Positions 15,597 to 43,041 of a stretch of 50,581 nucleotides of DNA are shown piece after piece. This stretch comes from Candidatus Sumerlaeota bacterium (lineage in GTDB: Bacteria; Sumerlaeota; Sumerlaeia; Sumerlaeales; Sumerlaeaceae), in NCBI GenBank assembly GCA_012513815.1, contig JAAZBM010000006.1, positions 1 to 50,581 of the forward strand. Reading direction: 5' to 3'. The position numbers were made by a program, and so were the translations under genes. The notes under the pieces are model-generated. The model was not told the DNA's origin. It did not search any database and saw only the letters and a list, made by a program, of their open reading frames with translations. Within the stretch, counting starts at the first letter, position 1, and the number at the start of each line of letters is the position of its first letter.

Positions 15597-15608
15597 AGTT
15601 TTATCCTC

Positions 15609-16148
15609 TTACTTACCGGCCTTCTTGCCTTCTTTACGGCGAACTTGTTCACCCGTGTATCGGATACCTTTGCCTTTGTATGGCTCAGGTGGGCGGAGTC
15701 CGCGAATTTTGGCGGCCATTTCGCCGACGAGTTGTTTGTCGCAACCGCTGACGATAATTGTGTTTGCCTTTGGGACTTCGTATTTGATACCGGCTGGTGG
15801 TTCAAGTTCGATTGGATGGCTGAATCCGAGTTTAAGGGAGAGTTTGTTACCGGCTGCTGTGACGGTGTATCCAACTCCCTGTACTTCGAGCTCTTTTGAG
15901 AACCCTTTGCTGACACCTTGTACCATGTTAGCGATGAGTCTCTGTGTGAGTCCGTGGTATGCTCTTGATTGTTTGTCGTCTGCGGAGCGTGTGACGTGCA
16001 CTGCGTTATCTTGGACGGTGACGTTCATTCTGCTGGGGTATACCCATTTGAGTTCGCCTTTAGGTCCTTTGACTGCGATTTCGTTTTGCGCGACGGTGAC
16101 GTTAACACCTTGCGGGATGACTACTGGAACTTTTCCAATTCTACTCAT
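15609..16148 (-). CDS. rplF: 50S ribosomal protein L6
   Basis: MSRIGKVPVVIPQGVNVTV...GYTHPIELEP-type L6 repeats. Confidence 0.9.
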   Translation of the reverse strand: MSRIGKVPVVIPQGVNVTVAQNEIAVKGPKGELKWVYPSRMNVTVQDNAVHVTRSADDKQSRAYHGLTQRLIANMVQGVSKGFSKELEVQGVGYTVTAAGNKLSLKLGFSHPIELEPPAGIKYEVPKANTIIVSGCDKQLVGEMAAKIRGLRPPEPYKGKGIRYTGEQVRRKEGKKAGK

Positions 16149-24449: not shown

Positions 24450-25649
24450 CTATTCGATGATGCTGGCGACGACGCCTGCACCGACTGTGTGACCGCCTTC
24501 GCGGATAGCGAAGCGCAGTCCCTCTTCCATAGCAATGGGGCTGACCAGTTCGACGGTCAGATTCACATTGTCACCGGGGATGACGGCTTCAGTACCCTCG
24601 GGGAGGGTAATGGTGCCGGTCACATCGGTTGTACGGAAGTAGAATTGGGGACGATAGTTATTGACGAAAGGAGTATGGCGACCGCCTTCTTCTTTCTTCA
24701 AGATGTAAACCTGTCCTGTGAACTTTGTGTGTGGTTTAATGGAGCCGGGGGCTGCCACAACCATACCGCGTTCGATATCTTTACGCTCTACGCCGCGCAG
24801 GAGGACACCGACGTTGTCACCTGCTTCGCCTGAGTCAAGGAGTTTACGGAACATTTCGACGCCCGTGCATGTTGACTTGATGGCTTCTTCGCGCAGACCA
24901 ACGATTTCGACCGGGTCACCGACTTTGACGATACCGCGTTCGACACGACCCGTTGCAACTGTACCACGACCGGAAATCGAGAAAACGTCTTCGACGGGCA
25001 TAAGGAAGGGCTTGTCTTTTGCGCGCTGAGGCTCGGGAATGTAAGAATCGAGAGCTTCCATGAGCTTGGTGATGCAGGGACGGCCATATTCGCCATCTTC
25101 GCCGTTGAGTGCCGCAAGAGCGGAACCGCGGATGATGGGTGTATCGTCGCCGGGGAACTCGTATTTGTCAAGTAGTTCGCGAACTTCCATTTCGACTAAG
25201 TCGAGAAGTTCCGGGTCATCGACCTGGTCGCATTTGTTGAGGAAGACGATGATGTAAGGAACACCAACCTGACGTGCAAGGAGGACGTGCTCAGCGGTCT
25301 GAGGCATGGGGCCGTCTGTTGCAGCGACGACAAGGATTGCGCCGTCCATCTGCGCCGCACCTGTGATCATGTTTTTGATGTAGTCGGCGTGTCCGGGGCA
25401 GTCAACGTGTGCATAGTGACGATTGGGTGATTCGTACTCAACGTGTGATGTGGCAATTGTGATACCACGAGCCTTTTCTTCGGGCGCCTTATCGATTTCG
25501 TCGAAAGCGATGAAGTGTCCTAAATTTGCTTCAGCCTGCGTCTTTGTGATCGCAGCTGTCAGTGTGGTCTTACCGTGATCAATGTGTCCGATTGTACCAA
25601 CATTGACATGCGGTTTAGTCCGCTCGTATTTTTCCTTGGCCATTGCCAA
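24450..25649 (-). CDS. tuf: elongation factor Tu
   Basis: 399 aa with [15 protein letters not shown] (G1), [12 protein letters not shown] and the full EF-Tu domain II/III sequence. Confidence 0.95.
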
Positions 25650-26250: not shown

Positions 26251-27708
26251 CTAACGACGTTCGATTTCGTGCTTGAGTTTCTCGATTTGCGGTTCGAGCT
26301 GGTATTTTTCGATACGATATCCGAGTGTTCGGCGTGTAATTCGGAGCAGTTCGGCGGCGCGTGTTTTGTTGAAATGTGCCCGTCGCATGGCGTTTAGGAT
26401 TTCCTTGATTTCGGCTTCGTCGAGAGACGAGTGTCCGTTTTCGGCGCTCAGGTCGTCGTTCGTGTCGTCGAATGTTTTGCCTCCGGAGGTCATGTGTGTG
26501 GCACTGGCGGCATCGAATTCGAAGTTCTGGATTTGTTTGGGCAAGTCCTCTTTTTTGATTGTTCCGGTGTCGTCACACATGACGAGGGCGAATTCGATTG
26601 CGTTTTCTAATTCGCGAATATTTCCGGGGTAGGTGTACTTGAGGAGGAGTTTTCGGGCGCCGTCGCTGAGTTTGTGTGTTTTGCCTGATCCTTTGGCATA
26701 TTTCGCCATAAAGTGGTCGATGAGCGCGGGCAGGTCCTCGTCACGGTCGCGGAGTGGGGGCAGCAGAATCGGGATGACGTTGAGCCGATAGTAGAGGTCG
26801 AGGCGGAACCATCCTTCGGCGACACCCTGTTCGAGGTTGCGGTTTGTGGCGGCAACGACGCGGACATTGACCGTTCGCGGGACGGGGTCGCCTACTCGGT
26901 ACAGTTCGCCTTCTTGGAGAACTCGTAGCATTTTGACTTGGAGGTGAAGCGGAATTTCGCCGATTTCGTCGAGGAAGATGGTGCCCCCATCGGCTGTTTC
27001 GAAGACGCCTTTGCGTGTTTCGACAGCTCCGGTGAATGCGCCGCGGACGTGCCCAAAGAGTTCCGCTTCGAGCAGGCTCTCGGGAATAGCGCCGCAGTTG
27101 ATGCTCTGGAAAACTTTGTCGGTTCGGGCGCTAAGGGAGTGGATGAGCCGCGCCATGACTTCCTTGCCGGTTCCGCTCTCGCCTGTCAGCAGGACGGGGG
27201 CGTTGCTCGCGGCGGCCTTCTTGAGCAACACCATGACTTCGCTCATTGCCTTGCCGCGGCACACGACATCGTTTTTCTCGACACTCTCCGCCGATGTCAC
27301 GTTTTGCCGCGGCATGGCGTTCTCTGTTGGCGGGGTTGGTTGCTTTCCTTTGATTTCCTCGACCCGGCGAATCGTTCCGAGTAATTCCTGAATGGTGAAA
27401 GGCTTTTTCTGATAATCGATGCCGCCCTCGCGGAACATCTCGGCGACGGTCTCGTCTGTTCCGTATGCCGTGCAAAGGATGAACGCCGTTTTTGGGCTGA
27501 GGCTTTGCGCTTTTTTTTGGAGTTCAAGTCCGGTCATCCCCGGCATGCGATAGTCGCAGATGATGATGTCGAAGGTTCGGACTTTGAGCATGTCCACTGC
27601 ATCGGTTGGCAGTGATGCCGTCGCGACCTCGTATCCGTGTTGAGTGAGGCGTCGTGCCGTTGGTTCGAGGACGTGGATTTCGTCGTCAATCATCAGTATT
27701 GAGGTCAT
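26251..27708 (-). CDS. sigma-54-dependent response regulator (NtrC/Fis family)
   Basis: N-terminal receiver domain, AAA+ sigma-54 activator domain with GESGTGKE Walker A and GAFTGA motif, C-terminal HTH (RAAELLRITRRTLGYRIEK). Confidence 0.85.
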   Translation of the reverse strand: MTSILMIDDEIHVLEPTARRLTQHGYEVATASLPTDAVDMLKVRTFDIIICDYRMPGMTGLELQKKAQSLSPKTAFILCTAYGTDETVAEMFREGGIDYQKKPFTIQELLGTIRRVEEIKGKQPTPPTENAMPRQNVTSAESVEKNDVVCRGKAMSEVMVLLKKAAASNAPVLLTGESGTGKEVMARLIHSLSARTDKVFQSINCGAIPESLLEAELFGHVRGAFTGAVETRKGVFETADGGTIFLDEIGEIPLHLQVKMLRVLQEGELYRVGDPVPRTVNVRVVAATNRNLEQGVAEGWFRLDLYYRLNVIPILLPPLRDRDEDLPALIDHFMAKYAKGSGKTHKLSDGARKLLLKYTYPGNIRELENAIEFALVMCDDTGTIKKEDLPKQIQNFEFDAASATHMTSGGKTFDDTNDDLSAENGHSSLDEAEIKEILNAMRRAHFNKTRAAELLRITRRTLGYRIEKYQLEPQIEKLKHEIERR

Positions 27709-27750
27709 GTGTTTGTCCTTTTCTTCAATCGCCGGAGGCGCGGCTATCCC

Positions 27751-28923
27751 CTATCTGCCGAGCGCGGTGGCCAGCCCGCCGCTGTTGTTCATGATTGTTT
27801 TCATGCTGAAAATGCAATAGCCATCACATCCGCGAGTTTTTTTGCAGATTTTGATTTGATTCATGACTTCCTGCACCGGCCATTTGCTGTCGACAATGCG
27901 ATAGGCACCGATGCCGGGCACGAGTTTTACACGGCTATTCTTCTTGTTTGCCGCCCACCATTTGAGCAATGTCTCGAAGGGTTGTTTGCTGTCGATTGCC
28001 CAATAGAGTTGTGGCGAGATGTAGTCGCACCATCCTTGCTGCATCCATAGCAGCGGGTCGGCGTAGAGTTCGTCGTACTGGCTCATGCCGGTGACACCGG
28101 CGGGAACGCCGGACTTCCAAATGCCGAATGGGCTGATGCCGACTTCGACACCGGGCTTGATGGATTTAACTACTGAGTAGATGTTCTTGACCATTTCGTT
28201 GATGTTCGCACGACGCCAGTCAGCAAGGCCCATTTCGCCTCCGGCCTTTTTGTAGGCGGCAAAATTCTCCGAGTCCGGGAAGTTCTTTCCACTCTCTTTA
28301 TAGGGATAGAAGTAGTCGTCATAGTGGATTCCATCGATATCATAGCGCGAGACAATGTCCGACACAACGGCTAATGTCTGTTTTTTGGCGGCGGGTGATG
28401 ACGGGTCGCACCAGAAGAATTTTCCGTAGGTGCGGACGGCGCCGGGCGATGAACGTGTGATATGCTTGCGGGTGTAGTCGCCGCGGTGCTTGGTCGCGCC
28501 GGCACGATAAGGATTAATCCATGCGTGGAGTTTCAGTCCTTTGGCGTGTGCCATCTTGCAGGCGGTTGCCAGTGGGTCGTATCCGGGGTCGCCGCCGTCT
28601 TTGCCAGTCAGGACGCGTGACCACGGCTCAATCGGGCTTTGATAGAGGGCGTCGCATTCCGAGCGCACTTGCAGAATGATTGTGTTGAACCCTGTCTGTA
28701 CGGCGGTGTTCATGATGTTGTCCAGTTCCGCGATTTGTGTTTGAGCGGGAAGTCCGGGTTTGGACGGCCAGTCGATATTGAGATAGGTGCTGACCCAGAC
28801 GGCTTTCATGTCTGCGGCGCCAACGGTGAGGGGCGCCAACAAACACAGTGATGCCATGATGAGGCACTGTTTGATTCTTGCGATTGATAACGACATTTTG
28901 TTTTGCTTCTTTCTTTTGTTCAA
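27751..28923 (-). CDS. glycoside hydrolase-like family 10 (GHL10 / YddW-like) lipoprotein
   Basis: Signal peptide. TIM-barrel-like motifs (GFNTIILQVRSECDALYQS, HAKGLKLHAWINPYR) typical of DUF187/GHL10 proteins. Confidence 0.65.
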   Translation of the reverse strand: MNKRKKQNKMSLSIARIKQCLIMASLCLLAPLTVGAADMKAVWVSTYLNIDWPSKPGLPAQTQIAELDNIMNTAVQTGFNTIILQVRSECDALYQSPIEPWSRVLTGKDGGDPGYDPLATACKMAHAKGLKLHAWINPYRAGATKHRGDYTRKHITRSSPGAVRTYGKFFWCDPSSPAAKKQTLAVVSDIVSRYDIDGIHYDDYFYPYKESGKNFPDSENFAAYKKAGGEMGLADWRRANINEMVKNIYSVVKSIKPGVEVGISPFGIWKSGVPAGVTGMSQYDELYADPLLWMQQGWCDYISPQLYWAIDSKQPFETLLKWWAANKKNSRVKLVPGIGAYRIVDSKWPVQEVMNQIKICKKTRGCDGYCIFSMKTIMNNSGGLATALGR

Positions 28924-28929
28924 TTTAGA

Positions 28930-30171
28930 CTACAAAAAACTTGTGGGTAATGATTGTTCATAGACGCTTTCCATTGCAGCGGCCATGTCGGATGCCATGA
29001 GGCGGCGAACATGGCGGTGCGCTCCCTGTGCCATCGACAGAATCTCGGTGCGCGCTTCGGTCATGGAGAGTCTTGCCAGCAAGTCGGCGATTTCCTGGGG
29101 CGCCCACGCATTGACGAGCCAGCCGTTCTCGCCGTCTTCAACTATTTCTGGGATTGCGCCGCATTTTGTACCGATGACGGGCAGGCCGTGTAGCATGGCT
29201 TCGGCGGCGACGAGACCGAATGCCGGTTGCGTTCTGTCGGGAAAGAGCATCAAGTCGGCGTTGCTCAGGAAGTTGGAGACTTCGTTGGGCGCAAGGTGTC
29301 CGAGGAGTTCGACGGAGTCATGGAGCTGATGTTTGGCGACAAAATCCTTAGCGTCTTCGTATCCCTCTCCGCCTCCGGCAATTTTGAAATTGACACGAAT
29401 GTCGGCTTTTTTGAGGATTCGAGCGGCTGCAAGAGCGTCCGGAATTCCTTTCAGATCCTGCATGCGGCCAAGCATGGCGACCGTCAGTGGCGCGGGCGCG
29501 AGGCCCGCCGGTAGTGGGACGCAAGGCGGCAGTCCGTCGGAAGGAACATTGTAGCGTCGCGCGTCAAGTCCGAGCGGAACAACACTGATTTTTGATTGCA
29601 GATTTTTGTTCATCCGCAACAGCGCCAACTGCGTAAATTCGCTGTCCGTGACGATGCGGTCGGTTTTCTTGAGCGATTTGCGAAATTGAGGAATCAGTGC
29701 GAGGCGCGATTTGTTGCGGTTGATGGCGCCGAAGATTTTTGACCATGGCATTTTTCTCAGATATCGGTGGTCGAGCGCGGTCTCGCTGAGCATGGTGCCG
29801 TGAACCGTTGTGACCCATGACGCCGCGATTTCGGGCGACGGATGCTTCATGAATAGTCCGGCGAATTCCTGTGTGTGGAGGATGTCCGCTCCCCCAATCC
29901 GACGGCAAATCTGGCGGGCGTAGGCGCCGATGCCAGCGAAGTAAAGCGCGGAATAGTCGCCGGGAGTGCCGATGGGTAGGTAGTTGACTGTGATGTTGTC
30001 GGGGAGACTCGGCGCATCACTGCATGCGGTTCCGGGGCGAGGTTTGGCGCTCGTCACCAAGTGAACCTCGTGACCACGTTCCGCGAGAGCTACTGCCAAA
30101 TCACGCGTGTGGAGTTCCAACCCACCAAGACGATGAACGGGCAATGCACGGACAACCATTACTATTTTCAT
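28930..30171 (-). CDS. glycosyltransferase family 4 (GT-B)
   Basis: N-terminal MKIVMVVRALPVHRLGGLELHTRDLAVALAERGHEVHLVT and C-terminal EGYEDAKDF...GLVAAEAMLHGLPVIGT (EX7E-like) motifs. Confidence 0.8.
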   Translation of the reverse strand: MKIVMVVRALPVHRLGGLELHTRDLAVALAERGHEVHLVTSAKPRPGTACSDAPSLPDNITVNYLPIGTPGDYSALYFAGIGAYARQICRRIGGADILHTQEFAGLFMKHPSPEIAASWVTTVHGTMLSETALDHRYLRKMPWSKIFGAINRNKSRLALIPQFRKSLKKTDRIVTDSEFTQLALLRMNKNLQSKISVVPLGLDARRYNVPSDGLPPCVPLPAGLAPAPLTVAMLGRMQDLKGIPDALAAARILKKADIRVNFKIAGGGEGYEDAKDFVAKHQLHDSVELLGHLAPNEVSNFLSNADLMLFPDRTQPAFGLVAAEAMLHGLPVIGTKCGAIPEIVEDGENGWLVNAWAPQEIADLLARLSMTEARTEILSMAQGAHRHVRRLMASDMAAAMESVYEQSLPTSFL

Positions 30172-30326: not shown

Positions 30327-31331
30327 ATGACTTTGCAATATATTCCGATTGAGACTCTGGAACAGTCCATGAATATTGTCGCTGTTTATCAAATGCTGAA
30401 TTATCAGATTCGCGCCAAAAAGGACGGCGGGCAGTTTGTGAGTATGCTGTTAAGCGATTCCAGCGGACGGATTCAGGCAATGCTGTGGGATAACATCGAG
30501 GGTTTTGTCGCGGGGAAGTACGCCGATAATGATTTTCTGGAGGTTAGCGGTTCGGTGCAGTCGTACAACAATCAGTTGCAACTGCGGGCGACACGCGTGC
30601 GCAAAGTGCCGCTTGCCGAGGTGGAAGTCTCGCGCTTTTTGCAATGCTCGCCGCGTGACCAGGCCGAGATGATTGCCGAGCTGAAGAAGCGTGTCGAGTC
30701 CATCGAGGACGAAGATTATAGGAGTGTCGTTGCCAGTGTGTTCTCTAACAAGGAGTTCGTGCGGGAGTTTACGCGTGGGGCGGCAGCGGTGATGATGCAT
30801 CACGCTTATATCCATGGACTGCTTGAGCATACGCTGTCGGTTGCCGCAACGGCAATGCGCATCGCCGAGGGATATCCGCGGCTGGATAAGTCGCTTTTGC
30901 TAGCGGCGGCACTGCTGCATGACATCGGGAAAACGATGGAGTATTGCAGTGATTATAAAATCGAGCTGACGGACGCCGGGCGACTGATTGGGCACATCAG
31001 CGCCGGAAGTATTATTGTTGAGAAACATTGCTCGCGGTTCCCGGATATGCCCGCGACGAAGAAAATGCTGCTTCTGCATTGCATCCTGAGCCATCACGGC
31101 GAGTACGAGTTTGGATCGCCGAAGCGCCCGAAAATCCCGGAGGCGTTGGTGCTGCATATCGCCGACTTGATTGACTCGCAACTTGCTGGTTATTATGAGA
31201 AGGCCGATGACGTCGCGCAAAAAGGAACCGGCAAATGGGAACAGATGTTTATGTTCCAGCGTCAGATGTTTTTGCGTGAGGATTTGCCTGTCGAGGGCGC
31301 AGACCTCATCGAGAAGTTTACTCAAGAGTAA
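30327..31331 (+). CDS. 3'-5' exoribonuclease YhaM-like (OB-fold plus HD domain)
   Basis: N-terminal OB-fold region. HD-domain motifs HHAYIHGLLEHTL...LLHDIGK...LSHHGEYEFGSPKRPK. Confidence 0.7.
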   Translation: MTLQYIPIETLEQSMNIVAVYQMLNYQIRAKKDGGQFVSMLLSDSSGRIQAMLWDNIEGFVAGKYADNDFLEVSGSVQSYNNQLQLRATRVRKVPLAEVEVSRFLQCSPRDQAEMIAELKKRVESIEDEDYRSVVASVFSNKEFVREFTRGAAAVMMHHAYIHGLLEHTLSVAATAMRIAEGYPRLDKSLLLAAALLHDIGKTMEYCSDYKIELTDAGRLIGHISAGSIIVEKHCSRFPDMPATKKMLLLHCILSHHGEYEFGSPKRPKIPEALVLHIADLIDSQLAGYYEKADDVAQKGTGKWEQMFMFQRQMFLREDLPVEGADLIEKFTQE

Positions 31332-31482
31332 CGGAGCTACACCCATTGATTGGGTCGGATACAAGATTTTGCATAAAAAAAGCACTTTTAACACAAAATG
31401 TTGTGAATAGATTTTTTAGGGGTTGTAATTAAGTACGTATTCTTGAGATGTTAACTCAAAATACCTCCTTTTTTTTAAACCC

Positions 31483-31526
31483 CTGCCGCCGGGACACCAC
31501 AACACCCCGGCGGTCCTTTTTTGTTT
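31483..31526 (+). terminator. rho-independent terminator
   Basis: CCGCCGGG-12nt-CCCGGCGG perfect 8-bp GC stem followed by TCCTTTTTTGTTT, about 150 nt downstream of the yhaM-like gene. Confidence 0.5.
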
Positions 31527-31649: not shown

Positions 31650-32276
31650 TTATTCGACTCGGTCGTATGCCATTCCGCAGTATTCGCAGTGGCTGTGATT
31701 GTCGGGATTTGCCGCGCCGCATCCCTTGCAAACGCGGGCATATTGTGGCGGGGCGGGTGGCTTGGGTTGTTGCGGCGACTGGTATTCGTCGGGGCGGATG
31801 TTTCGTGAAAGCAACCATTCGCGGCGTTGACGGGCAGCATCTTCATCGCTGACGAAGAATTCCATGCCTTGTCCGTTATCGATGATTCGGCAGTTGTGGC
31901 TCGGAAGGATATCCTTGTGAATCATTTCTTGCACGGCGGCGGCGACTGTATTGACATCAGCACCTGTTTTGGCGGCAATACTTTTGAAGGAGGTGTCGCC
32001 GTTGAACATTCGATTCAGAATCTCGCTATAGAGTTTGCGCTTTTGCTGATTGTGGTAATATGACCACAATGAACTCAGCACACACAAACCGACAAGGATT
32101 AGGAAAAAATACAAGATCTCCTTCCCGCCAACGGTGTTTAAAAACAGACAAAGCAAGATAAGCCCCACAAGACAGCCACAGCTTATGTTGGGCTTTTTGG
32201 TCGAGTAAGCGGCGTCGAGGCGTTGGAAGATTTCCTCGAAGCTCATTTCTATCTGTGGTCTGAATTCGTCGTTCAT
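31650..32276 (-). CDS. hypothetical 2-TM membrane protein with C-terminal zinc-ribbon (tandem paralogue A, YdjG-like?)
   Basis: N-terminal motif MNDEFRPQIEMSFEEIFQRLD. Two hydrophobic helices. C-terminal VCKGCGAANPDNHSHCEYCG zinc-ribbon. Pairs with the downstream paralogue. Confidence 0.5.
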   Translation of the reverse strand: MNDEFRPQIEMSFEEIFQRLDAAYSTKKPNISCGCLVGLILLCLFLNTVGGKEILYFFLILVGLCVLSSLWSYYHNQQKRKLYSEILNRMFNGDTSFKSIAAKTGADVNTVAAAVQEMIHKDILPSHNCRIIDNGQGMEFFVSDEDAARQRREWLLSRNIRPDEYQSPQQPKPPAPPQYARVCKGCGAANPDNHSHCEYCGMAYDRVE

Positions 32277-32410
32277 GAGTCGTCTCTATTTGTATTTATG
32301 ACTCCCGTGACTCGGCTCGAATCCTTCTTTTGATTTTTCATCGTTGCGAAGTCATCATTCATTGTGTAGACGAGTGGTTGGACGTAATTAGGATTCACGT
32401 TTGTTTCGAT

Positions 32411-33028
32411 TTAGTCAAATGGCGCGCCACAGTATTCGCAGTGGCTACGGTTGTCCGGGTTTGTCGCGCCGCATCCTTTGCAGATACCGGCATATTTAGG
32501 CGGGGTCGATGGTTGCTGTTGTTGTTGCGGGAGTTTGTCGGAACCGTTATTGTGGGCGGCTTCCCATTCGTGTTGTTGCCGTTCGGCTTCTTCATCGCTG
32601 ACATAGAATTTCACGCTTTGACCATCGTCGACGATTTTGCAACTGTCCTTTGGCAAGATGTCCTTGTCAATCATGTCTTGCACAGCCTCGCCGACCTTCA
32701 GGTAATTCGTCTTGAGCGAAGAGGCAATGGATTCAAGGGACGTTTCGCCGGTGAAAATAAGGGCGAGAATTCCTTTATAGAAATCCTTTTTGCTGCGGCC
32801 GGAAGAGGAAGTAATGAACAACCACACCGAAAGTATATAAAACAGGAAAACGCAAGTTATGGCGAAGGCGCCGCCATCGTCGAACGCCATGATTAGCCCC
32901 ACGACTCCCAGAATGCTGGAGATGCCCCCACAGCAATTCCAAGATTCGCTGGTCGAAAAAGCCTTTTCGAGTTTTTGATGGATTTCGTCAAAACTCAAAT
33001 CTAATCTTGGTGTGAATTCGTTGTTCAT
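32411..33028 (-). CDS. hypothetical 2-TM membrane protein with C-terminal zinc-ribbon (tandem paralogue B)
   Basis: Same architecture as 31650..32276 (MNNEFTPRLDLSFDEIHQKLE...ICKGCGATNPDNRSHCEYCG). Nucleotide-level similarity is visible around the zinc-ribbon region. Confidence 0.5.
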   Translation of the reverse strand: MNNEFTPRLDLSFDEIHQKLEKAFSTSESWNCCGGISSILGVVGLIMAFDDGGAFAITCVFLFYILSVWLFITSSSGRSKKDFYKGILALIFTGETSLESIASSLKTNYLKVGEAVQDMIDKDILPKDSCKIVDDGQSVKFYVSDEEAERQQHEWEAAHNNGSDKLPQQQQQPSTPPKYAGICKGCGATNPDNRSHCEYCGAPFD

Positions 33029-33082
33029 TTTGTGTCTCTATTCGTGTGGCGCCCGCCTCGACGCGCTGCCGATTGAAACGGC

Positions 33083-33796
33083 CTAGAAACCGCCTCGTTT
33101 GGCTTGAGCCAATTCTGTGGCTCGCTGCGCAATGAGGAATTTTATTTTGTTGACGGCTTCTGCGACGGAATCGGCTTTGGTGTCGTCCGGCCCTTTGAGG
33201 ACTCTGTCAAGCTGTTCGACCGCTCCGAAGATTTCTTCGTCTCGTGAACTTTTGCCTACGCGGTCAGCATATTTTGCGGCTTCGTAGGCGGCTTGGAGTT
33301 GCTGCGAGAAAGGCGCGTTCGCTGCGTCGTTTTTGAGCGCCTCGAGTGTCTTTTCCGTTTCGAGCATAAAGGCCATTGCCGCTTTCGTCTGTGAGTCCAC
33401 AGCCTGAACCCGTCCGGCAAACGCGCTGATGAATATGACGATGATGATTGTCGGCGCGATGACGAAGAGGTGGAAGACGGTGAAGAGGTTCTGATGCTCT
33501 TCGAAGAGGTCTTTGACGGCAAACAAAAGCAGCGTCAACAGGAAGTATATGATGAGAGTGGTCGGGATTCCGACTCGCATGATGATCGGGCTTGCTCCGA
33601 GCTTTTGCGAGACAGACAGGTAGATGCCGATTGTGCAGACGAATTCCGAGACGATGAGCGCCCAGAATGCCATCATGTCGACTTTTGATCGGTCGGGTTC
33701 GCTTGTGAGCAAGAAGAATGTCGCGGCAGTCAAGAGTATGATGACCGCGCCGACAAGAAGCGTCGAAACGCCAAAGGTGTGTTTGCTGAGGTTCAT
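33083..33796 (-). CDS. hypothetical 4-TM membrane protein with C-terminal cytoplasmic helical domain (YdjH-like?)
   Basis: Four hydrophobic helices in the first 130 aa, then a predicted alpha-helical soluble domain. Located between the zinc-ribbon paralogues and the SPFH gene. Confidence 0.45.
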   Translation of the reverse strand: MNLSKHTFGVSTLLVGAVIILLTAATFFLLTSEPDRSKVDMMAFWALIVSEFVCTIGIYLSVSQKLGASPIIMRVGIPTTLIIYFLLTLLLFAVKDLFEEHQNLFTVFHLFVIAPTIIIVIFISAFAGRVQAVDSQTKAAMAFMLETEKTLEALKNDAANAPFSQQLQAAYEAAKYADRVGKSSRDEEIFGAVEQLDRVLKGPDDTKADSVAEAVNKIKFLIAQRATELAQAKRGGF

Positions 33797-33811
33797 GTTT
33801 GTTTCCCTTTC

Positions 33812-35125
33812 CTATTGAAGTTTTTTGCCGCAGTCGGGGCAGAACTTCGCTCCGTCTTTGACCACGCATCCGCAGTCGGGGCATTTGCTTTGGGGTTTTG
33901 TCTCGAATGGCGTTCCGCAATCGGGGCAGAATTTGTTCGTGCCGTTATTCGTGTTCGCTCCGCATTTTGGGCATGGCGCCAATGGGGCCTTGCCGCATTC
34001 GGGGCATGGAGATGTTGTGTCGGGTCTGTCCGCGCTGCAGAATTCACATTTCAGATAGGGGTCACCGCATTCGGGGCAGAACTTCGCTGTTTTGGGGAAG
34101 CTCTTTCCGCATGAACAGCATTTGACTTGTTCTGCTGGTGCGGGTGCTTGCGTCGGTGCCACGAGTGAGGCTCCGCAGGTGCCGCAGAATTTGACCATCT
34201 GCAAATTGTCGGCTCCACATTTGGGACATTTGACGGGTGGTTGTGTGTTGATGCTCTGAGCGATGGTTCCCATTGCTCCACCCATCGTGCCGCCCACGCC
34301 AAGTCCCATGCCAAGGCCGATGCCCGCTCCCATGAGTCCGGCCTGAGCGCCGCCGGTGTTTTTGGCCGCGCCCTCGAGTGTGTCGAACGAGCGTTCCTGT
34401 GTGTAGTTGTATCCGATGATTTCCATCTCGGCTTTTTTGGCGAGTGCCGCCTTGAGCTGCTTGACCGCCGAATCGTCTTCGGATGTGCTGATGTCTGTGA
34501 CGTAGAAGTTCGAAATCGAAATGCCGTACTCGTCAAAGGTCGGCTTGACTTCTTCGCCGATGAACTGCGAAAGCTCGTTGAGGTAAGCATTGATTTCAAG
34601 CAACGTGATTTGCTTTTTGACAAGATACGATGAAATGGCGTCTTTGGCTCGGGTAAGGTACAGCCCGCGGAAATACTGCGTCATGTATTCGCGTGTGAAT
34701 ACGGAAAGTGTGCCGACGAGCTTTGTTAGGAATTTGCGTGAGTCGGAGATTTGCAAACCGAATTGTCCGTGCGAACGCACCGGCAAAAAGATTTTATATT
34801 TTGGGTCTTGAATCTGGATGGGTGTCGGTGTGCCCCACTTGACATCCAATGTGAAAGCTTTGTTGACAAACCATACTTCCGCGGAAAATGGTGACTGCCC
34901 ACCAAAGGGAAGATTGATGAGTTTGTCGAGTAGCGGGATGTTCGTTGTGTCGAGCGTGTGGCGCCCGGGCGAGAAAACGTCGAGTGCCTGTCCGCCCTTG
35001 AACAGCACTGCCTCTTGTGATTCGTTGACGATGACCTGAGTAAAGGTGCTCAGTTCCTCGTTGGGGAACTTCCACGCATAGATTGTTGGAGGCCCGTCAA
35101 ATTTGACTACATCAATAATCGCCAT
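33812..35125 (-). CDS. SPFH/band-7 (stomatin-prohibitin) family protein with glycine-rich linker and five C-terminal zinc-ribbons (COG4260 / YdjI-like)
   Basis: N-terminal SPFH-like region (IYAWKFPNEELSTFTQVIVNESQEAVLFKGGQALDVFSPGRHTL). Gly-zipper GLMGAGIGLGMGLGVGGTMGGAMG. Then five CxxC-X10-13-CxxC modules (aa 300-432). Confidence 0.6.
   Translation of the reverse strand: MAIIDVVKFDGPPTIYAWKFPNEELSTFTQVIVNESQEAVLFKGGQALDVFSPGRHTLDTTNIPLLDKLINLPFGGQSPFSAEVWFVNKAFTLDVKWGTPTPIQIQDPKYKIFLPVRSHGQFGLQISDSRKFLTKLVGTLSVFTREYMTQYFRGLYLTRAKDAISSYLVKKQITLLEINAYLNELSQFIGEEVKPTFDEYGISISNFYVTDISTSEDDSAVKQLKAALAKKAEMEIIGYNYTQERSFDTLEGAAKNTGGAQAGLMGAGIGLGMGLGVGGTMGGAMGTIAQSINTQPPVKCPKCGADNLQMVKFCGTCGASLVAPTQAPAPAEQVKCCSCGKSFPKTAKFCPECGDPYLKCEFCSADRPDTTSPCPECGKAPLAPCPKCGANTNNGTNKFCPDCGTPFETKPQSKCPDCGCVVKDGAKFCPDCGKKLQ
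33815..34228 (-). repeat. tandem array of five zinc-ribbon-coding repeats within the SPFH gene
   Basis: Five CPxCG...FCPxCG units. Repeated gcagtcggggca/gcattcggggca-type DNA motifs (reverse complement of TGCCCCGA(A/C)TGC) are visible on the plus strand. Confidence 0.5.
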
Positions 35126-35231
35126 TGTTAATACTCCTTTTTATTGTGCTAAAGTATTATTATAAAAGATATTCTTTTTTTAGTCAAAAGCAATTTGTCC
35201 GAAAATTATATTTGCGGCTATAATGGTCAAA

Positions 35232-35272
35232 TCCGCAGAAAAACGCACAAAAAAAGGCGGCGAAGCTGTGTG
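35232..35272 (-). terminator. rho-independent terminator downstream of EF-G paralogue
   Basis: GGCGGCGA-11nt-TCGCCGCC perfect stem. Preceded on plus by a 7-A run, which is a U-run on the minus transcript. Confidence 0.55.
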
Positions 35273-35316
35273 CCTCGCCGCCAGTGTTTATCTCTGTGGA
35301 ATGACGGGAACGAATG

Positions 35317-37389
35317 TTATTCGTCGTCATCTTCGTCGTCGCTGGTGTATGCGGCAACGATTTTCTCCTGAACTTCAGCGGGAACTCTCTCGTAGTGGTC
35401 ATAGCCCATTTCGTAGATTCCGCGGCCCTGTGTGATGGAGCGCAGTTGCTTGTTGAAATCGAACATTTCGGCGGCAGGCACAAGCGCTGTGATGACTTGC
35501 TTTTTGCCTTCGGCTTCCATGCCGAGGATGCGTCCACGACGTGTGTTGAGGTCGCCCATCACGTCACCCATGTATGCTTCGGGAACGACGACTCTGACCT
35601 TGTTGATTGGTTCGAGGATGATGGGTCCGGCCTGTTTGGAAACAAGCTTGAAGCCTTTGCTTGCGGCGATTTGGAATGCCGCGTCGCTTGAGTCGACGGG
35701 GTGCGTTTTACCGTCGTAGCAAACTGCTTTCATGTCGACCGCGACGTTCCCCGCGATAATGCCTTTTTCCATCGCGGCGCGAATGCCCTTTTCGACGGAG
35801 CTTTCGTAGTTGCGCGGAATGACGCCGCCGACGATTGCCCATTCGAATTGGAATCCGCTACCTTCGGGCAGTGGCTCAAGTCGAATCCAGCAGTCACCGA
35901 ATTGTCCTCTACCGCCGCTCTGCTTTTTGTGCTTGCCTTCGCCTTCGGCCTTTTTCGTAATTGTTTCGCGATACTCGACTTTGGGGATATTGAGTTCAGC
36001 TTCGACTTTCACACCCGAGCGCAAGCGCGAGAGCACGACGTCGATTTGTGTGTCACCCATTGCTTCGAGGATTGACTGGTGCGTGACGGGGTTGCGATAG
36101 AAATGCAACGTTGGGTCTTGCTCCATCATGCGGTGAATTGCGGCGCCGATCTTTTCTTCGTCTTCGCGCTTCTTGGCGGAGATTGCCATCGCGACGACGC
36201 GTTGAGGCATTGTCGTTGGCGCAAGTGTGACGGTGTTTTTGCCTTCGCAAAGTGTGTCGTAGATGCGTGTCTTGGCGAGTTTGGCGAGCGCGCCGATGTC
36301 GCCCGCGACAAGCTGATTGACAGCTTCTTGTTTTTTGCCGCGCATGGTCATCAGGTGCGAGACACGTTCGTCTGTGTTTGTCTTGGGGTTGTTGAGTGTC
36401 GTATCGTTTTTCACAACACCGCTAAGAACCTTGAAGAAAGTCAGGTATCCGGCAAACGCATCGCTGACGGTCTTGAAAACGAAAGCGGCTGTTGTTCCGG
36501 CGGCGTCGCAAGCGATTTCGATATCGTCTTCGTTCGCGTTTTGCGCCTTGACGGCTGGGCGCTCTGTGGGCGCGGCCACCAAGTCGACAAGCATATCCAT
36601 GATTCCGGTTGTGTCTGCGCCAAGAGAACCGGCGGCGACAAAGACGGGGCATGCTTTGCGGGTTTTGGTTTCGGCGGCGAGACCCTTCATGACTTCTTCA
36701 TGGGTGAGTGTTTCGCCATCGAGGACCTTCATCATCATCTCGTCGTCGCCTTCGGCGGCTGTTTCAGTGAGATCCATAAACCGTGATTCAAAGTCGTCCT
36801 TCAGGTCCGCGGGGATTTCGGCGAGCACTGTTTTGCCGGCAGCTCCTGTGGCGTACTTACCGTTGAGCATATTGACGACGCCTTTGAAGTTGAGTCCTTC
36901 GCCGACGGGGAATGATGCCAAGACGGTGCGTGCTCCAAGTTGCGTGTTGATTGAGGCATAAGCTTTCTCGAAATCAGCGCGTTCGCGGTCTAATTTATTG
37001 ATAACAAAGATGACGGGGAGATTATATTCTTCCGCGATTTCCCATGCGATTTCGGTGCCGACTTCGACTCCGCTATCCGCGTTGATGAAGATAACCATTG
37101 TATCGACGACGCGTGCGCAGTTGCGGATTTCTCCGATGAAATCGCGTGCTCCGGGCAAGTCCAGAATGTTGATTTTGCATCCACGATATTCCACGGGCAC
37201 CAACGAAGCGCTGACTGTGCAACCACGTTTAATTTCTTCGGCGTCATAGTCGCAGAGCGCAACGCCTTCTTCCAGACGTTCAACCGCCTTGGTGTTCAGT
37301 AGCATCGATGCGGCCATCGCTGTTTTTCCTGAGCCGCTATGACCGGCAAAGGCCACATTTCGGATTTGTTCGGAAGTATAGTCCTTCAC
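35317..37389 (-). CDS. elongation factor G family GTPase (EF-G paralogue)
   Basis: 690 aa. AGHSGSGKT (G1), DLPGARDF, NKLD motifs, and EF-G domains II-V in C-terminal sequence. Confidence 0.85.
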   Translation of the reverse strand: MKDYTSEQIRNVAFAGHSGSGKTAMAASMLLNTKAVERLEEGVALCDYDAEEIKRGCTVSASLVPVEYRGCKINILDLPGARDFIGEIRNCARVVDTMVIFINADSGVEVGTEIAWEIAEEYNLPVIFVINKLDRERADFEKAYASINTQLGARTVLASFPVGEGLNFKGVVNMLNGKYATGAAGKTVLAEIPADLKDDFESRFMDLTETAAEGDDEMMMKVLDGETLTHEEVMKGLAAETKTRKACPVFVAAGSLGADTTGIMDMLVDLVAAPTERPAVKAQNANEDDIEIACDAAGTTAAFVFKTVSDAFAGYLTFFKVLSGVVKNDTTLNNPKTNTDERVSHLMTMRGKKQEAVNQLVAGDIGALAKLAKTRIYDTLCEGKNTVTLAPTTMPQRVVAMAISAKKREDEEKIGAAIHRMMEQDPTLHFYRNPVTHQSILEAMGDTQIDVVLSRLRSGVKVEAELNIPKVEYRETITKKAEGEGKHKKQSGGRGQFGDCWIRLEPLPEGSGFQFEWAIVGGVIPRNYESSVEKGIRAAMEKGIIAGNVAVDMKAVCYDGKTHPVDSSDAAFQIAASKGFKLVSKQAGPIILEPINKVRVVVPEAYMGDVMGDLNTRRGRILGMEAEGKKQVITALVPAAEMFDFNKQLRSITQGRGIYEMGYDHYERVPAEVQEKIVAAYTSDDEDDDE

Positions 37390-37551: not shown

Positions 37552-40266
37552 TTATTTATTGTTCAGCAAAGGAGCGACCTGTTTGACGCCGCCTTTTGCG
37601 TTCTTTTTCTTCTTGCGTTCAGCCCACCATTTTGCGAGGTCGACATACATCGGCGCCGCGATGAAGCTGGATGAGTAGGTACCGGTGAAGACACCAATCA
37701 GCATGACCAACGCGAAGTCGAAGAGTCCGGCGCCGCCCCAGATGAGCATGGCAACCAATGACGCAAGCAGTGTGCCTGCGGTCATGATGGTACGGTTTAG
37801 CGATTCGCAAATGGAAGCGTTCGCGATGTCCGCGTTTGATTTACTGGGGTAGAGCTTTTTGTTTTCACGCATACGGTCGAAAATAACGATTGTATCGTTG
37901 ACGGAGCTACCGAGCAAGACGAGCAACGCGGAGACGACATCCAGTGTCAAGTCGCCGCACCACCCGAGGAATCCGAACAGTGAGAAGATTCCCACAGTGG
38001 TGAGTAAGTCGTGTGCCAGTGCCGCGACAGCGCAGAAACCGAAGAGGAATTCGAATCGGAATGCCATGTAAATCAGGATGCCGATGCAAGCGAAAATACA
38101 TGACAGAATTGCCATTCCTTTGAACTCCGTACCGACTTCGTTACTGACCGCTTCGCTACTGGTGATGGTGTATTTGCCCGCTCCGATGGTCTGGTCAAGT
38201 TGCGTCTTAACCTTCTCCTGAGTTTTCACAATCGGGTTTTCGCCTTCGGCAGTTGTTGCAAACTTCGAGCGTAACAGGTAGGCGTTTTCGCCTGCCACCT
38301 TTTGTGCTGTCAGGTCGTTGAACTCTCCGGCGATTTGTTGTGTTGTCAGTTTATCGGTTGTCGTGATGGATGTCAGGACGCCTCCCGTGAAGTCCGTGCC
38401 CCAGTTGATGCTGATGCTTGTGGGCAGGATAACGTAGGCGCAGAAGGCCATCATGCAAATGGCGATAGGATAGCTGATGCGGCGCAGTTTCATGAAGTCA
38501 TAAAGGAATCCTTCGCGGAACCACTGCCACTTGCCGATGTCAAGTTTCTTGAAGCGGTCGAACCAGAAATCTACGAGTGCGTGGGTGCAGAACAGACCGG
38601 TGAACAGTGTCGCGATGATACCAACGTTCAATGCGAGCGCGAAACCCTTGACGGAACCGGAACCGAATTGCAACAGTGTGAGGCCGGAGATTAATGTTGT
38701 CAAGTTACCGTCGAAGATAACGCCGAAGGCACGTCCGTGACCGAGGGCGATAGCTTGTTTGAGCGGCTTCTTGGCATACAATTCTTCGCGGATACGTTCG
38801 TAAATAAGAATGTGCGCGTCAACGGCCATACCAATCGTCAGCAAGACGCCGCCGATACCTGACAGAGTCAGCGTCGCGCTGGCTAACTTCATGAATGCGA
38901 AAATAATGAGCACGTTGATGGTCAACGCGATGATGGCGATGAAGCCGGCCGCATGGTAATACAGAACCATCATCACGGCAATGAAGAGAGCGCCCAAGCC
39001 AAGTGACCAAACGGATGCAGCAACGGAGTCGGCACCGAGTGTCGCTTCAACGGTCTGCTTCTGGATTGGCTCCAACGCAGCTGGCAACGCACCGGCCTTG
39101 AGCACCATGGCGATGTCCTGACCTTCTTCGACGGTGAAGTCGCCTGTGATGACGCAGGAGCCTTGGTCGATGATTGTCTGGATGCGCGGATAGGTGTAAA
39201 CGACGTCATCAAGAAGGACGGCAAGGGGTTTCTTGAGGTAGTTCTGTGTGATGTCGCCGAAGCGTTTGGCGCCGTCGCTGTTGAATGTCAGGCGGACTTC
39301 GACGGGGCTTTCCATGCTTGATGGATTGACGGCGACCCATGCATCCTGAATGCTATCGCCGCGCATCTCGACGCGTGACTTGACAAGCAGATAGGATTCG
39401 ATGGCTTCTTTTTTGCCCGTTGCGCGATTCATGCGCGAGGTCTTGCTCTTGCGGACTTCGTATCCGGGAGGGATGCTGCGGCCTTCGAGCACCTTGCCGG
39501 TGTTGATGTCAATGTAGTTCGCGCTTTCCTCATGGTAATCACCATTCGCGTCCGGTTGTTCGGCGGTTTTGAGTCCACGGAACTCGAGTTGCGCAGGTCT
39601 GATGATTGTGCTGATGACACGCTCGGGGTCTTTTTCGCCGGGAATCTGCACGCGGATGCGGCTATCGCCCTGTTTGGCGACGGACGGTTGCGTGACGCCC
39701 AAGTTGTTGACACGGTCACGGATGACCTTGAGTGCGCTATCGATACTCTCCGTCATTTCGCGTTTCAGTTCGGCGTGATTGACAATGAGTTTTGTCGCTT
39801 TGCCCGCTTTGAGTTCGCCTTCTTTGAAGTTCGCGAACTGGGTCGCGTAGCGTGTCGAAAGTAGGTTGTCGACGGAGCGTTCTTGGTCGGCCTTGTTGAG
39901 CGTAATCACGATGCAAGGTGATTCGCCGGTTGGCTCCATGTCAACAGATGCGTCGATCGCGGGACTTTCGCTGCTAAACGCTTTGCGAATATTTTCCGCG
40001 ATTTTTTCGACTTTTGCAGCCTTTGTTTTGCTCTCATCAATCCCGAGCAGAACATCCACACCGCCTTGCAAATCCAAGCCAAGAGGAATGCTCTTAAGTC
40101 GTAATTCTTCGAGCTTTGCCGGCTCGACCGGGATGACCCCCGAGACTCCGAGGAAGTAACGGAAGGTGGGAATAATGAGAATAATGGAGATGATGGCCAC
40201 CGCGGCAACAACCGCCAGACGCCACTTTAGTTCCGCTTTCATATGTTTTGGGTCATGTGCAATCAC
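37552..40266 (-). CDS. secDF: protein translocase subunit SecDF (fused)
   Basis: 904 aa. N-terminal SecD (large periplasmic loop plus 6 TM) fused to C-terminal SecF TM bundle. Possible alternative start at MKAELKWR (40242). Confidence 0.9.
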   Translation of the reverse strand: MIAHDPKHMKAELKWRLAVVAAVAIISIILIIPTFRYFLGVSGVIPVEPAKLEELRLKSIPLGLDLQGGVDVLLGIDESKTKAAKVEKIAENIRKAFSSESPAIDASVDMEPTGESPCIVITLNKADQERSVDNLLSTRYATQFANFKEGELKAGKATKLIVNHAELKREMTESIDSALKVIRDRVNNLGVTQPSVAKQGDSRIRVQIPGEKDPERVISTIIRPAQLEFRGLKTAEQPDANGDYHEESANYIDINTGKVLEGRSIPPGYEVRKSKTSRMNRATGKKEAIESYLLVKSRVEMRGDSIQDAWVAVNPSSMESPVEVRLTFNSDGAKRFGDITQNYLKKPLAVLLDDVVYTYPRIQTIIDQGSCVITGDFTVEEGQDIAMVLKAGALPAALEPIQKQTVEATLGADSVAASVWSLGLGALFIAVMMVLYYHAAGFIAIIALTINVLIIFAFMKLASATLTLSGIGGVLLTIGMAVDAHILIYERIREELYAKKPLKQAIALGHGRAFGVIFDGNLTTLISGLTLLQFGSGSVKGFALALNVGIIATLFTGLFCTHALVDFWFDRFKKLDIGKWQWFREGFLYDFMKLRRISYPIAICMMAFCAYVILPTSISINWGTDFTGGVLTSITTTDKLTTQQIAGEFNDLTAQKVAGENAYLLRSKFATTAEGENPIVKTQEKVKTQLDQTIGAGKYTITSSEAVSNEVGTEFKGMAILSCIFACIGILIYMAFRFEFLFGFCAVAALAHDLLTTVGIFSLFGFLGWCGDLTLDVVSALLVLLGSSVNDTIVIFDRMRENKKLYPSKSNADIANASICESLNRTIMTAGTLLASLVAMLIWGGAGLFDFALVMLIGVFTGTYSSSFIAAPMYVDLAKWWAERKKKKNAKGGVKQVAPLLNNK

Positions 40267-41691: not shown

Positions 41692-42807
41692 TTATTCCTT
41701 ACGGCGGTTTGCGCGGGCGAGAACCCAGCCGATGATGGCGACTCCCAACAGGCTTGCATATGCCCAGTTGGGAATTTGGCGTAGGTATTTAAGGGAACTT
41801 TCTTTGACGACGGGCGCGGATGGCGGAATGTTCCGTGGGTCCTTCGCGGCAGCAGCTTGTTTTGCTTGCGCTTCTTTCTCAGCCTTTTTAACTTCGGCAA
41901 TATGGAACAATTCCTCGTCAGAAGGGAAGGAGGTTCCGGTACTTGTATAGTTGAGAGGCGGTGTGAACCGCACGTCTTGCACTTTTGTTCCTTCGGTGAG
42001 TAATGTTGGACGGATTTTCGCGTCAATTGGCGCATCTTGAATCACTTCGTCAAATTGCCAAAAACGTGGCCCTTGAAAAATAGAAGGATGATTGACGGTG
42101 TTTCTGACGGATATTGTGTAGGGAAAAACGCCATCCCCCCGGTAGGTCATGAGTAGCAGGAAGGTTGGTGCCGGTGGGTCGTTGGAAGCATAACGAAAAG
42201 CCACGGAGGCACTCGTTACACGCCCTTTATCATCAACAAGAAAATCAATCAGTCGTTCATTGGGGACTTCGCCTTTGAGACAATGATTGCGATAGTGTGC
42301 GCCCTCGACATGAGTCAATGTTCCCGAGGTGGCTATGGTGGATAACATTCTGATGTAGGCAATGCAGTCTTTGTCAAAGGTGAAAGAACTGAGCGAGCAG
42401 TAATACACGACGGGTTGGTCTGTTCGACGTACATATGCGAACAAATCCGCCGATGGATTGTTCTGATTTCGTCCCATAATATACGCGGCGTAATTCGACG
42501 CCCGCAGCACTTCATCGGGTTGAAGCACAGTGGTGCAAGTGCTTGCGGGATCGAACTTCATATATACCAGTTTGTCATTCTTTTTCCCAATGGCAAAACG
42601 CCCCGCAAGATTTGCCTTTTCATGTCCACGGTCTAACTCCACAAACCCTTGCGCATAAAAGTTTTCGGTTGATGGATTGGGGAATTGAAGCGAAACGGCA
42701 TGTGCTATTGTGGGCAAAATCCAAATAGACAGAAACAAGCAGCATACATATCGAATGTTTTTTATCATGGGCAACCCAATCTTTCTTGATTGTACAGGAA
42801 AGCGCAT
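41692..42807 (-). CDS. hypothetical exported protein with C-terminal TM anchor
   Basis: Signal peptide (CLFLSIWILPTIAHA). About 300-aa extracytoplasmic domain. C-terminal hydrophobic helix plus basic tail (WAYASLLGVAIIGWVLARANRRKE). Confidence 0.4.
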   Translation of the reverse strand: MRFPVQSRKIGLPMIKNIRYVCCLFLSIWILPTIAHAVSLQFPNPSTENFYAQGFVELDRGHEKANLAGRFAIGKKNDKLVYMKFDPASTCTTVLQPDEVLRASNYAAYIMGRNQNNPSADLFAYVRRTDQPVVYYCSLSSFTFDKDCIAYIRMLSTIATSGTLTHVEGAHYRNHCLKGEVPNERLIDFLVDDKGRVTSASVAFRYASNDPPAPTFLLLMTYRGDGVFPYTISVRNTVNHPSIFQGPRFWQFDEVIQDAPIDAKIRPTLLTEGTKVQDVRFTPPLNYTSTGTSFPSDEELFHIAEVKKAEKEAQAKQAAAAKDPRNIPPSAPVVKESSLKYLRQIPNWAYASLLGVAIIGWVLARANRRKE

Positions 42808-43041
42808 AGGAAGAGAGCGCTCCGTTGGATTCCCATTTGTATCAGTAATAGGTGCTTGTGCATCGCGACTCCTAAATACTTATTAATAATTATTAACCCC
42901 ACATCTACTCGCTATTCAGGATGATGGCCTATCCATTTTTGTCTTTCATTGTCGGAGGCGGGCATGGGTGTGATTGACAAAAGGTTTATGCAAAGGTTTG
43001 TAGTGTAGTAAAATAGTTATTATGCTAGAAGGAATTATTCG

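Follow-up and report, generated by a model that had tools for sequence, protein, structure and literature searches.

Four co-directional genes on the minus strand of the Candidatus Sumerlaeota contig JAAZBM010000006.1, a stretch of 50,581 nucleotides (nt) that is referred to here in its entirety as the window, encode an SPFH protein that ends in zinc ribbons (gene A), a protein with four transmembrane (TM) segments (gene B), and two paralogous zinc-ribbon proteins (genes C and D). An original prediction, made from the letters of the DNA, described this block as a relative of the YdjG/YdjH/YdjI membrane module of Bacillus subtilis without PspA. The four open reading frames (ORFs) have the architectures claimed for them, and their coordinates, TM segments, and Cys motifs are confirmed: A (437 residues) lies at 33812..35125, B (237 residues) at 33083..33796, C (205 residues) at 32411..33028, and D (208 residues) at 31650..32276, with gaps of 15, 54, and 134 nt for A/B, B/C, and C/D, respectively. 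The order of an SPFH protein, a 4-TM protein, and a ribbon protein is a self-contained cassette, whose recurrence in independent metagenomic loci is far beyond chance. As judged from sequence comparison, the cassette resembles YdjGHI in layout; only A is homologous, and the partners of A are analogues at best.

The block is bounded on both sides. A strong terminator-like intrinsic hairpin (35256..35282, minus strand), with an 11-bp stem containing 9 G-C pairs and followed by TTTTTTT, closes the upstream gene, which encodes a paralogue of EF-G (35317..37389), and sets the upstream limit of the module. This is followed by a σ70-type promoter-like site (TTGACT-17 nt-TATAAT; 35159..35187, minus strand), which matches the consensus at 11 of 12 positions, and by a ribosome-binding site, AGGAG, positioned on the same strand 8 nt 5' of the ATG of gene A. 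On the downstream side, the neighboring gene (30327..31331, plus strand), which encodes a protein with an OB-fold and an HD domain, is convergent with D. Given this terminator boundary, the promoter-like site, and the convergent downstream gene, A through D look like a single, independent transcription unit.

A is a soluble member of the Band_7_1 family of SPFH proteins. Its residues 18 to 217 (34475..35074) match Pfam PF13421 with an E-value of 2.9e-45 and a score of 154.9 bits against a cutoff of 24, and matches to the Pfam families DZR, Zn_Ribbon_1, and Zn_ribbon_3 are also present; no TM segment was found in the protein. The SPFH domain is followed by a Gly/Met-rich "glycine-zipper" segment (residues 262 to 285, GLMGAGIGLGMGLGVGGTMGGAMG; 34271..34342), which is nearly invariant in an alignment of homologues and which matches in position the low-complexity region of YdjI (PMC8581546). 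The C-terminal part of A (residues 300 to 432; 33830..34228) consists of five tandem zinc ribbons. Across 21 aligned homologues, drawn from different lineages, 20 Cys residues are invariant, and these make up five CxxC-x10-12-CxxC units (C300/303/314/317, 336/339/350/353, 360/363/374/377, 385/388/400/403, and 415/418/429/432). Exactly ten CxxC knuckles are found in 74 of the 87 A-type SPFH ORFs of the sampled clade, indicating that five ribbons are normal for this clade. Thus, the contrast that was originally drawn between five ribbons in A and one in YdjI holds as a count, but not as a local peculiarity of this genome.

The best database match of A is a protein, labelled Candidatus Sumerlaeales bacterium, that is 99% identical. 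Full-length homologues of 428 to 441 residues, about 60% identical and with the same multi-ribbon architecture, occur in several phyla, carrying the labels Clostridia, Oscillospiraceae, Peptococcaceae, Desulfosporosinus meridiei, Synergistaceae, Deltaproteobacteria, Desulfuromonadales, and Solirubrobacterales. Conservation within the cassette is unequal: A retains approximately 60% identity across phyla, compared with 30 to 35% for B and about 23% for C. The far higher conservation of A is consistent with the idea that it forms a constrained homo-oligomer. Profiles of the A family searched against the PDB matched zinc ribbons only and retrieved no experimental structure of a Band_7_1 protein. 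Some cassettes, arranged as A-B-C-A'-C, contain a second, divergent Band_7_1 paralogue, A' (L011:7113-8396, L016:6288-7607, L055:4133-5302, and L088:7696-9000). In three of these, A' has only 2 to 3 ribbons and no Gly/Met zipper, which suggests that A and A' may form hetero-oligomeric SPFH pairs like HflK/HflC.

B has four hydrophobic segments, and its AlphaFold2 model, which is based on an alignment of 75 sequences, is all-helical and of very high confidence (mean pLDDT 94.7, pTM 0.80). In this model, the fourth of the four TM helices runs into a cytoplasmic bundle composed of helices 102-156, 158-175, 186-201, and 207-235. The protein is 100% identical to a Candidatus Sumerlaeota database protein and has no significant match in Pfam, NCBIfam, PADLOC, or PHROG. 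A word-indexed query with B alone retrieved only 3 proteins, and an exhaustive HMMER search was used to assemble the family of 318 representatives at 50% clustering. The architecture of these proteins is uniform, with no fusions, and they fall into two size classes, one of about 230 residues and another of about 147 residues that consists solely of the four TM helices.

The most conserved element of the B family is its very C-terminus, which in the window protein is K-R-G-G-F (residues 233 to 237; 33086..33100). In a set of 133 full-length representatives that share no more than 50% identity, the five terminal positions hold K in 97, R in 84, G in 116, G in 77, and F, I, Y, V, or L in 113. KRGGF or a close variant also persists in the short forms, which have no helical bundle (25 of 26 from the metagenome loci and 9 of 9 among the representatives). 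A docking motif would be expected to take just such a form, a free and conserved peptide at the C-terminus of a membrane anchor, and we infer that the K-R-G-G-Phe/Ile tail is a docking peptide.

C and D are 42% identical to each other (E 9e-54) and have the same architecture, in which a TM hairpin is combined with a ribbon (CxxC-x10-CxxC) at the C-terminus. In C, an N-terminal helix precedes the hairpin (residues ~28 to 77), which is followed by a helical domain resembling a helix-turn-helix (HTH; ~76 to 121), a disordered linker, and the ribbon, whose Cys residues 183, 186, 197, and 200 are invariant in the family. The AlphaFold2 model of C, with a pLDDT of 70.7, places the hairpin at 28-51 and 54-92 and additional helices at 98-105, 109-121, and 145-161. 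Assignment of the middle domain as HTH-like is unproven: the HTH-type matches of D are all below threshold (HTH_Cmi2_C, 0.0016; HTH_24, 0.0078; HTH_36, 0.01; Csa3 HTH, 0.13), and scattered relatives of C and D match PCI, BrxC_wHTH, HTH_24, or HTH_36. The C/D family comprises at least 63 clusters.

The even numbers of TM segments and the cytoplasmic zinc ribbons would place all of the soluble parts of B, C, and D on the inner side of the membrane. The external loops of these proteins are only 2 to 8 residues long.

C and D are closer to each other (158 bits) than either is to any outside sequence (63 bits or less), suggesting that the duplication is specific to this lineage; where other genomes have two C-type copies, these represent older short and long subtypes. 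A motif, AAATAGAGAC, is found directly 5' of the ATG of both C (33029-33062) and D (32277-32310) on the minus strand. A clear Shine-Dalgarno sequence precedes A (AGGAG) and B (GGAAAGGG) but neither C nor D. The motif common to C and D is probably left over from the duplication and may have a bearing on translation. An ENA metagenome protein of 254 residues (P0178) is 97% identical to C and, in a different assembly, is annotated as about 49 residues longer, pointing to an alternative upstream start or a difference in assembly.

Conservation of the cassette is seen in a metagenome scan, which yielded 80 loci in which the B and C/D neighbors were called with iterated hidden Markov models. B follows A in 71 of the 72 loci that have enough downstream sequence, and a C-type gene comes next in 64 of 67. 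All 165 of the partner genes lie on the strand of A, with a median gap from A to B of 6 nt. The layouts, counted with the inclusion of a few loci from outside the metagenomes, are ABC (34 loci), ABCC (18), CABC (5), ABCAC (3), and ABCCC (2). The occurrence of layouts with extra C-type genes indicates that multiple C copies are normal for the clade; thus, C and D are indeed paralogues, as first proposed, but the duplicated ribbon gene is no oddity. Outside the C family as well, the third gene carries a zinc ribbon, and a ribbon-less protein is never used: in one such locus (L013) the third protein combines a ribbon with TPR, and in another (L037) it has two ribbons and a C-terminal TM segment, a YdjG-like layout in miniature. 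The cassette is also confirmed in Desulfosporosinus meridiei and in metagenome-assembled genomes labelled Synergistaceae, Deltaproteobacteria, and Solirubrobacterales. Downstream of the A homologue of D. meridiei are genes for proteins of 235, 185, and 209 residues; these comprise homologues of B (30% identity, E 1.5e-35) and of C/D. No further conserved neighbor emerged from all-against-all clustering of the flanking ORFs, in which only antisense shadow ORFs of A recur. Together, the recurrence of the gene order and the terminator and promoter-like site in the window bear out the proposal that the four genes form one block, one whose members co-occur in related loci.

B and C/D constitute two families without a Pfam or NCBIfam model. 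Their database members are all labelled "hypothetical" and have no Pfam domain, and literature searches with the terms COG4260, PF13421, Band_7_1, and SPFH plus zinc ribbon plus operon returned no description of the cassette or of either family.

PspA is missing from the surroundings of the cassette, as had been noted at the outset. A phmmer search with Bacillus PspA against all window ORFs of at least 60 residues gave nothing at E<=10, and the PspA family is not among the Pfam matches of 20 flanking or mid-sized window ORFs. Similarly, no PspA is present within 7 kb in 79 related metagenomic loci.

For comparison with the partners of YdjI, the Bacillus pspA-ydjGHI locus (samGHI) was recovered from B. 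stercoris and three other subtilis-group species by matching the published ydjG primer sequence (PMC8581546) to genome contigs. YdjI (323 residues) consists of a Band_7_1 domain (E 2.3e-43) and a single C-terminal ribbon unit with one CxxC pair. YdjH (253 residues) has a signal or TM segment, a TPM domain (PF04536, E 1.1e-23), a second TM segment, and a Gly/Ser tail. YdjG (341 residues) carries two TFIIB-type ribbons in its N-terminal part and, after a large domain, a TM segment at the C-terminus, in agreement with the published architecture (PMC11237479). A and YdjI are 25% identical over 334 residues (E 1e-20). This similarity and the PF13421 match sustain the description of A as a YdjI-like protein with an SPFH domain and ribbons, although COG4260 itself fell outside the Pfam-based search.

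The proposed kinship of the other proteins does not survive this comparison. Alignment by hhalign, using profiles of 77 B-type and 97 C-type sequences, gives a probability of just 0.7% for B with YdjH and 0.5% for B with YdjG. BLASTP finds nothing between B and YdjH, B has no TPM match, and its model is all-helical; thus, B is not a YdjH homologue. For C/D and YdjG, hhalign gives 52%, yet over 35 columns that correspond to the second ribbon of YdjG only. The BLASTP E-values exceed 0.4, and the topology is reversed, so C/D are likewise rejected as YdjG homologues. In all of the BLASTP comparisons of B, C, and D with YdjH and YdjG, nothing beyond the CxxC motifs is shared, and homologues of YdjG or YdjH are absent from every one of the metagenomic loci. 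Of four features that define the PspA-YdjGHI locus, then, the cassette has the YdjI-type SPFH protein and lacks the other three (pspA, a TPM partner, and a YdjG-type partner). Two further traits of the Bacillus system are recruitment of the SPFH protein to the membrane by both membrane partners and induction under envelope stress, through σW; for the cassette, the corresponding observation is a match to a σ70-like promoter only.

The surroundings of the cassette in the window are core chromosome, encoding SecDF, the EF-G paralogue, EF-Tu, and ribosomal proteins L3, L4, L2, S3, L5, and S5. Pfam scans of the 20 flanking or mid-sized ORFs detected housekeeping families only, and GC skew is positive throughout the window. 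The EF-G paralogue (690 residues; 35317-37389), directly upstream of the cassette, adjoins a fused SecDF of 904 residues (37552-40266). This paralogue lies apart from EF-Tu and the ribosomal-protein cluster (~14.4-23.9 kb), with 24450-25649 as the second interval in this comparison, and may be a second, specialized EF-G. Rfam and tRNA scans of the whole 50.6-kb window revealed no tRNA gene and no Rfam family at gathering score, despite the presence of the ribosomal-protein cluster. Within this region, an ORF of 225 residues (15239-15916) has no Pfam match at E<=1e-3 and may be a mis-called frame; two minus-strand ORFs at 41692-42807 (371 residues) and 42946-44148 (400 residues) have none at E<=1e-5.

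The interval between D and the convergent OB-fold/HD gene contains a G+C-rich hairpin, CCGCCGGG...CCCGGCGG, at 31470-31515, bordered by A-runs to one side and by T-runs to the other. It has the appearance of a terminator that serves chiefly the plus-strand gene but possibly acts in both directions. Beyond the OB-fold/HD gene, at 26251-30171, the gene for an NtrC-type σ54 response regulator (receiver, AAA, and HTH_8 domains) has as neighbors a glycosyl-hydrolase-like gene of the GHL10 type and a gene for a GT4 glycosyltransferase, which also matches the "GT4-conflict" Pfam model (E 9.8e-12). The σ54 response regulator (26251..27708) was considered as an analogue of PspF and rejected: it has a receiver domain, typical of NtrC, three genes intervene, and the promoter of the cassette looks σ70-like.

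How might such a cassette work? The family identity of A, the conservation of the operon, the topology of the proteins, and their motifs have been computed, and each interaction and physiological role discussed from here on is our interpretation of them. With moderate confidence, we favor the idea that the cassette specifies a membrane-anchored SPFH scaffold or sensor complex that is analogous to SamGHI and dispenses with an operon-encoded PspA. SPFH proteins typically oligomerize, and from what is known of the family, soluble A probably does so as well. Because A lacks a membrane anchor of its own, B and C/D would have to bring it to the inner surface of the membrane, a step that the invariable linkage of the genes and the precedent of YdjI/SamI make probable. 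B would be the 4-TM anchor, with its K-R-G-G-Phe/Ile tail, and perhaps its bundle too, docking the SPFH assembly. C/D could be tied to A by ribbon-ribbon or ribbon-SPFH contacts, consistent with the finding that the third gene always encodes a ribbon. Since B and C/D have no extracytoplasmic domain, any signal would have to be sensed within the membrane, as an intramembrane property such as lipid order, tension, or damage. By analogy with SamI and SamGH, the output would probably be local stabilization or organization of the membrane, restraint of signaling by the membrane partners, or both.

Work on the Bacillus proteins offers precedents for several of these steps. YdjG and YdjH are required for the membrane localization of YdjI (PMC8581546). 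SamI is reported to be a "higher ordered oligomer" and has been proposed to restrain SamGH signaling or to organize the membrane, and the developmental role of SamGHI is independent of PspA (bioRxiv 10.64898/2026.02.06.704340).

Several points weigh against an SPFH scaffold or sensor of this kind. The HTH-like domain of C/D plays no part in the proposed mechanism, and conservation is the whole of the case for docking by the tail of B. In addition, independence from PspA holds at the level of the operon only. Finally, a minority of homologous cassettes are located in prophages, on plasmids, or in contexts rich in toxin-antitoxin and abortive-infection (Abi) genes, where an accessory or conflict function fits as well as a housekeeping one.

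The limit on PspA independence leads to the first alternative, namely that the cassette belongs to a Psp system and works with a PspA encoded elsewhere in the genome. A is, after all, a YdjI-family protein, and comparative work raises the possibility that PspA homologues from other loci act together with band-7 operons (PMC11237479). However, the absence of PspA from the window and from the 7 kb around each of the 79 related loci argues against such a partnership, as does the replacement of YdjH, the reported contact for PspA, by an unrelated protein. Moreover, SamGHI itself fulfills its developmental role in Bacillus with no need of PspA (bioRxiv 10.64898/2026.02.06.704340). On this evidence, we regard dependence on a distant PspA as unlikely.

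A second alternative starts from the mobile contexts and holds that the cassette is a horizontally spread membrane module for anti-phage defense or superinfection exclusion, acting in the manner of abortive infection. Copies of A that are about 60% identical are found in distant phyla within completely different genomic contexts, and five IMG/VR viral contigs carry A. In one of these (L089, IMGVR_UViG_3300022660_000109), a tail-fibre-like gene (Peptidase_S74) and a tyrosine integrase precede A-B-C-C, and in another (L090, IMGVR_UViG_3300009117_000010), A-B-C-C is followed by a phage tail sheath gene; on these predicted viral or prophage contigs the cassette may be prophage cargo. A Synergistaceae locus has in its vicinity genes for a resolvase, ParE/Phd, AbiEii, and a transposase, and a related cassette on a Butyrivibrio plasmid is flanked by genes for the S subunit of a restriction system, for a recombinase, and for a toxin-antitoxin pair. 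Among 150 nearest-neighbor genes, integrase (5), resolvase (3), and transposase (2) are the commonest families. Most neighbors, however, are diverse housekeeping or metabolic genes, and the cassette in the window sits in core chromosome, by EF-G, SecDF, EF-Tu, and the ribosomal-protein cluster. In PADLOC-DB 2.0.0, A, B, and C have no match and D gives only noise below the threshold (E-values of 0.0066 and 0.063), and a PHROG scan of the four proteins yielded nothing meaningful. Unlike most defense proteins, A is under unusually strong purifying selection, and no recognizable effector, whether a nuclease, a protease, or a pore-forming toxin, is encoded in the cassette. A dedicated defense role thus appears improbable.

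The last alternative, that C and D are membrane-tethered transcription regulators whose winged-helix-like domain binds DNA while the SPFH protein controls their availability or release, could draw on the HTH matches of D and of the scattered family members listed above and on the short three-helix unit that AlphaFold2 places after the second TM segment (H98-105, H109-121). The signs of an HTH are weak, however, and variant cassettes can do without the domain; we regard this as the least probable of the explanations.

To return to the membrane-anchored SPFH complex, a bolder form of the idea can be entertained, although we think it doubtful as a whole: the cassette would be a distinct, undescribed three-component membrane system, in which an SPFH oligomer, docked by the tail of B and by ribbon-ribbon contacts, senses intramembrane damage and acts without ESCRT-III/PspA, and which possibly constitutes a horizontally mobile module for protection or defense.

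SPFH proteins are present in all domains of life. To our knowledge, how an anchorless protein of the YdjI/SamI type is attached to the membrane, and what it controls, have been studied only in Bacillus, where the work is at an early stage. Several better-known systems resemble the cassette in having an SPFH gene beside the gene for a small membrane-protein partner. The SPFH-NfeD pairs (stomatin/QmcA-YbbJ, YqiK-YqiJ, FloT-YuaF, and FloA-YqeZ) and HflK/C-FtsH form membrane-associated complexes (bioRxiv 10.64898/2026.02.06.704340; PMC9239133). Their SPFH proteins, however, have their own TM or hairpin anchor and long coiled coils, whereas A is anchorless. Their partner is an NfeD OB-fold protein or a protease, whereas B, which has no Pfam match to NfeD, is all-helical and contains neither an OB-fold nor a protease.

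Variant, more distant cassettes are those of Bacteroides finegoldii and of the Butyrivibrio fibrisolvens plasmid pNP21, which also encode, in this order, an SPFH protein, a B-family protein (hmmsearch E 8e-10 and 1e-13), and a ribbon protein. They differ in that the third protein is a soluble one composed of a ribbon and TPR. In addition, the C-terminal segment of the B. finegoldii SPFH protein is by eye Pro-rich and GYF-like, with no CxxC ribbons, although the protein keeps the Gly/Met zipper, and its B homologue is without the KRGGF tail. The B. finegoldii cassette (L094; NZ_OY725907.1, 61383-63994) is preceded by a YidD-like gene, and this replicon is called a plasmid, yet carries obgE, adk, and dinB.

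The nearest known system is PspA-YdjGHI itself. In both, the SPFH protein belongs to Band_7_1 and is built in the same way, from a soluble SPFH domain through a low-complexity segment rich in Gly and Met to one or more C-terminal ribbons, and both operons encode a polytopic membrane protein and a membrane-anchored zinc-ribbon protein. The differences are that the cassette has no pspA within it or nearby; that the TPM domain of YdjH and the NTF2-like domain of YdjG are absent; that B and C/D are unlike YdjH and YdjG in sequence and topology, C/D having their TM hairpin at the N-terminus, then an HTH-like domain, and a single ribbon at the C-terminus; that A has five ribbons, compared with one in YdjI; and that the SPFH gene comes first here and last in Bacillus. 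Thus, SPFH proteins of the YdjI type have in anaerobes another set of membrane partners, unrelated to the first and much more widespread, with which they travel without PspA. Two features of this second set are leads that might transfer to Bacillus. One is the constant presence of a zinc ribbon in the third partner. The other is the KRGG-Phe/Ile tail of B, which is echoed by Gly-aromatic tails in the Bacillus proteins (SRGSF in YdjH and GGGF in YdjG). These tails may represent a shared mode of binding Band_7_1 proteins, or they may be a coincidence. On the bolder form of the idea given above, a general rule of SPFH protein, tail-docking membrane protein, and zinc-ribbon partner would hold and would also explain how YdjG and YdjH hold YdjI.

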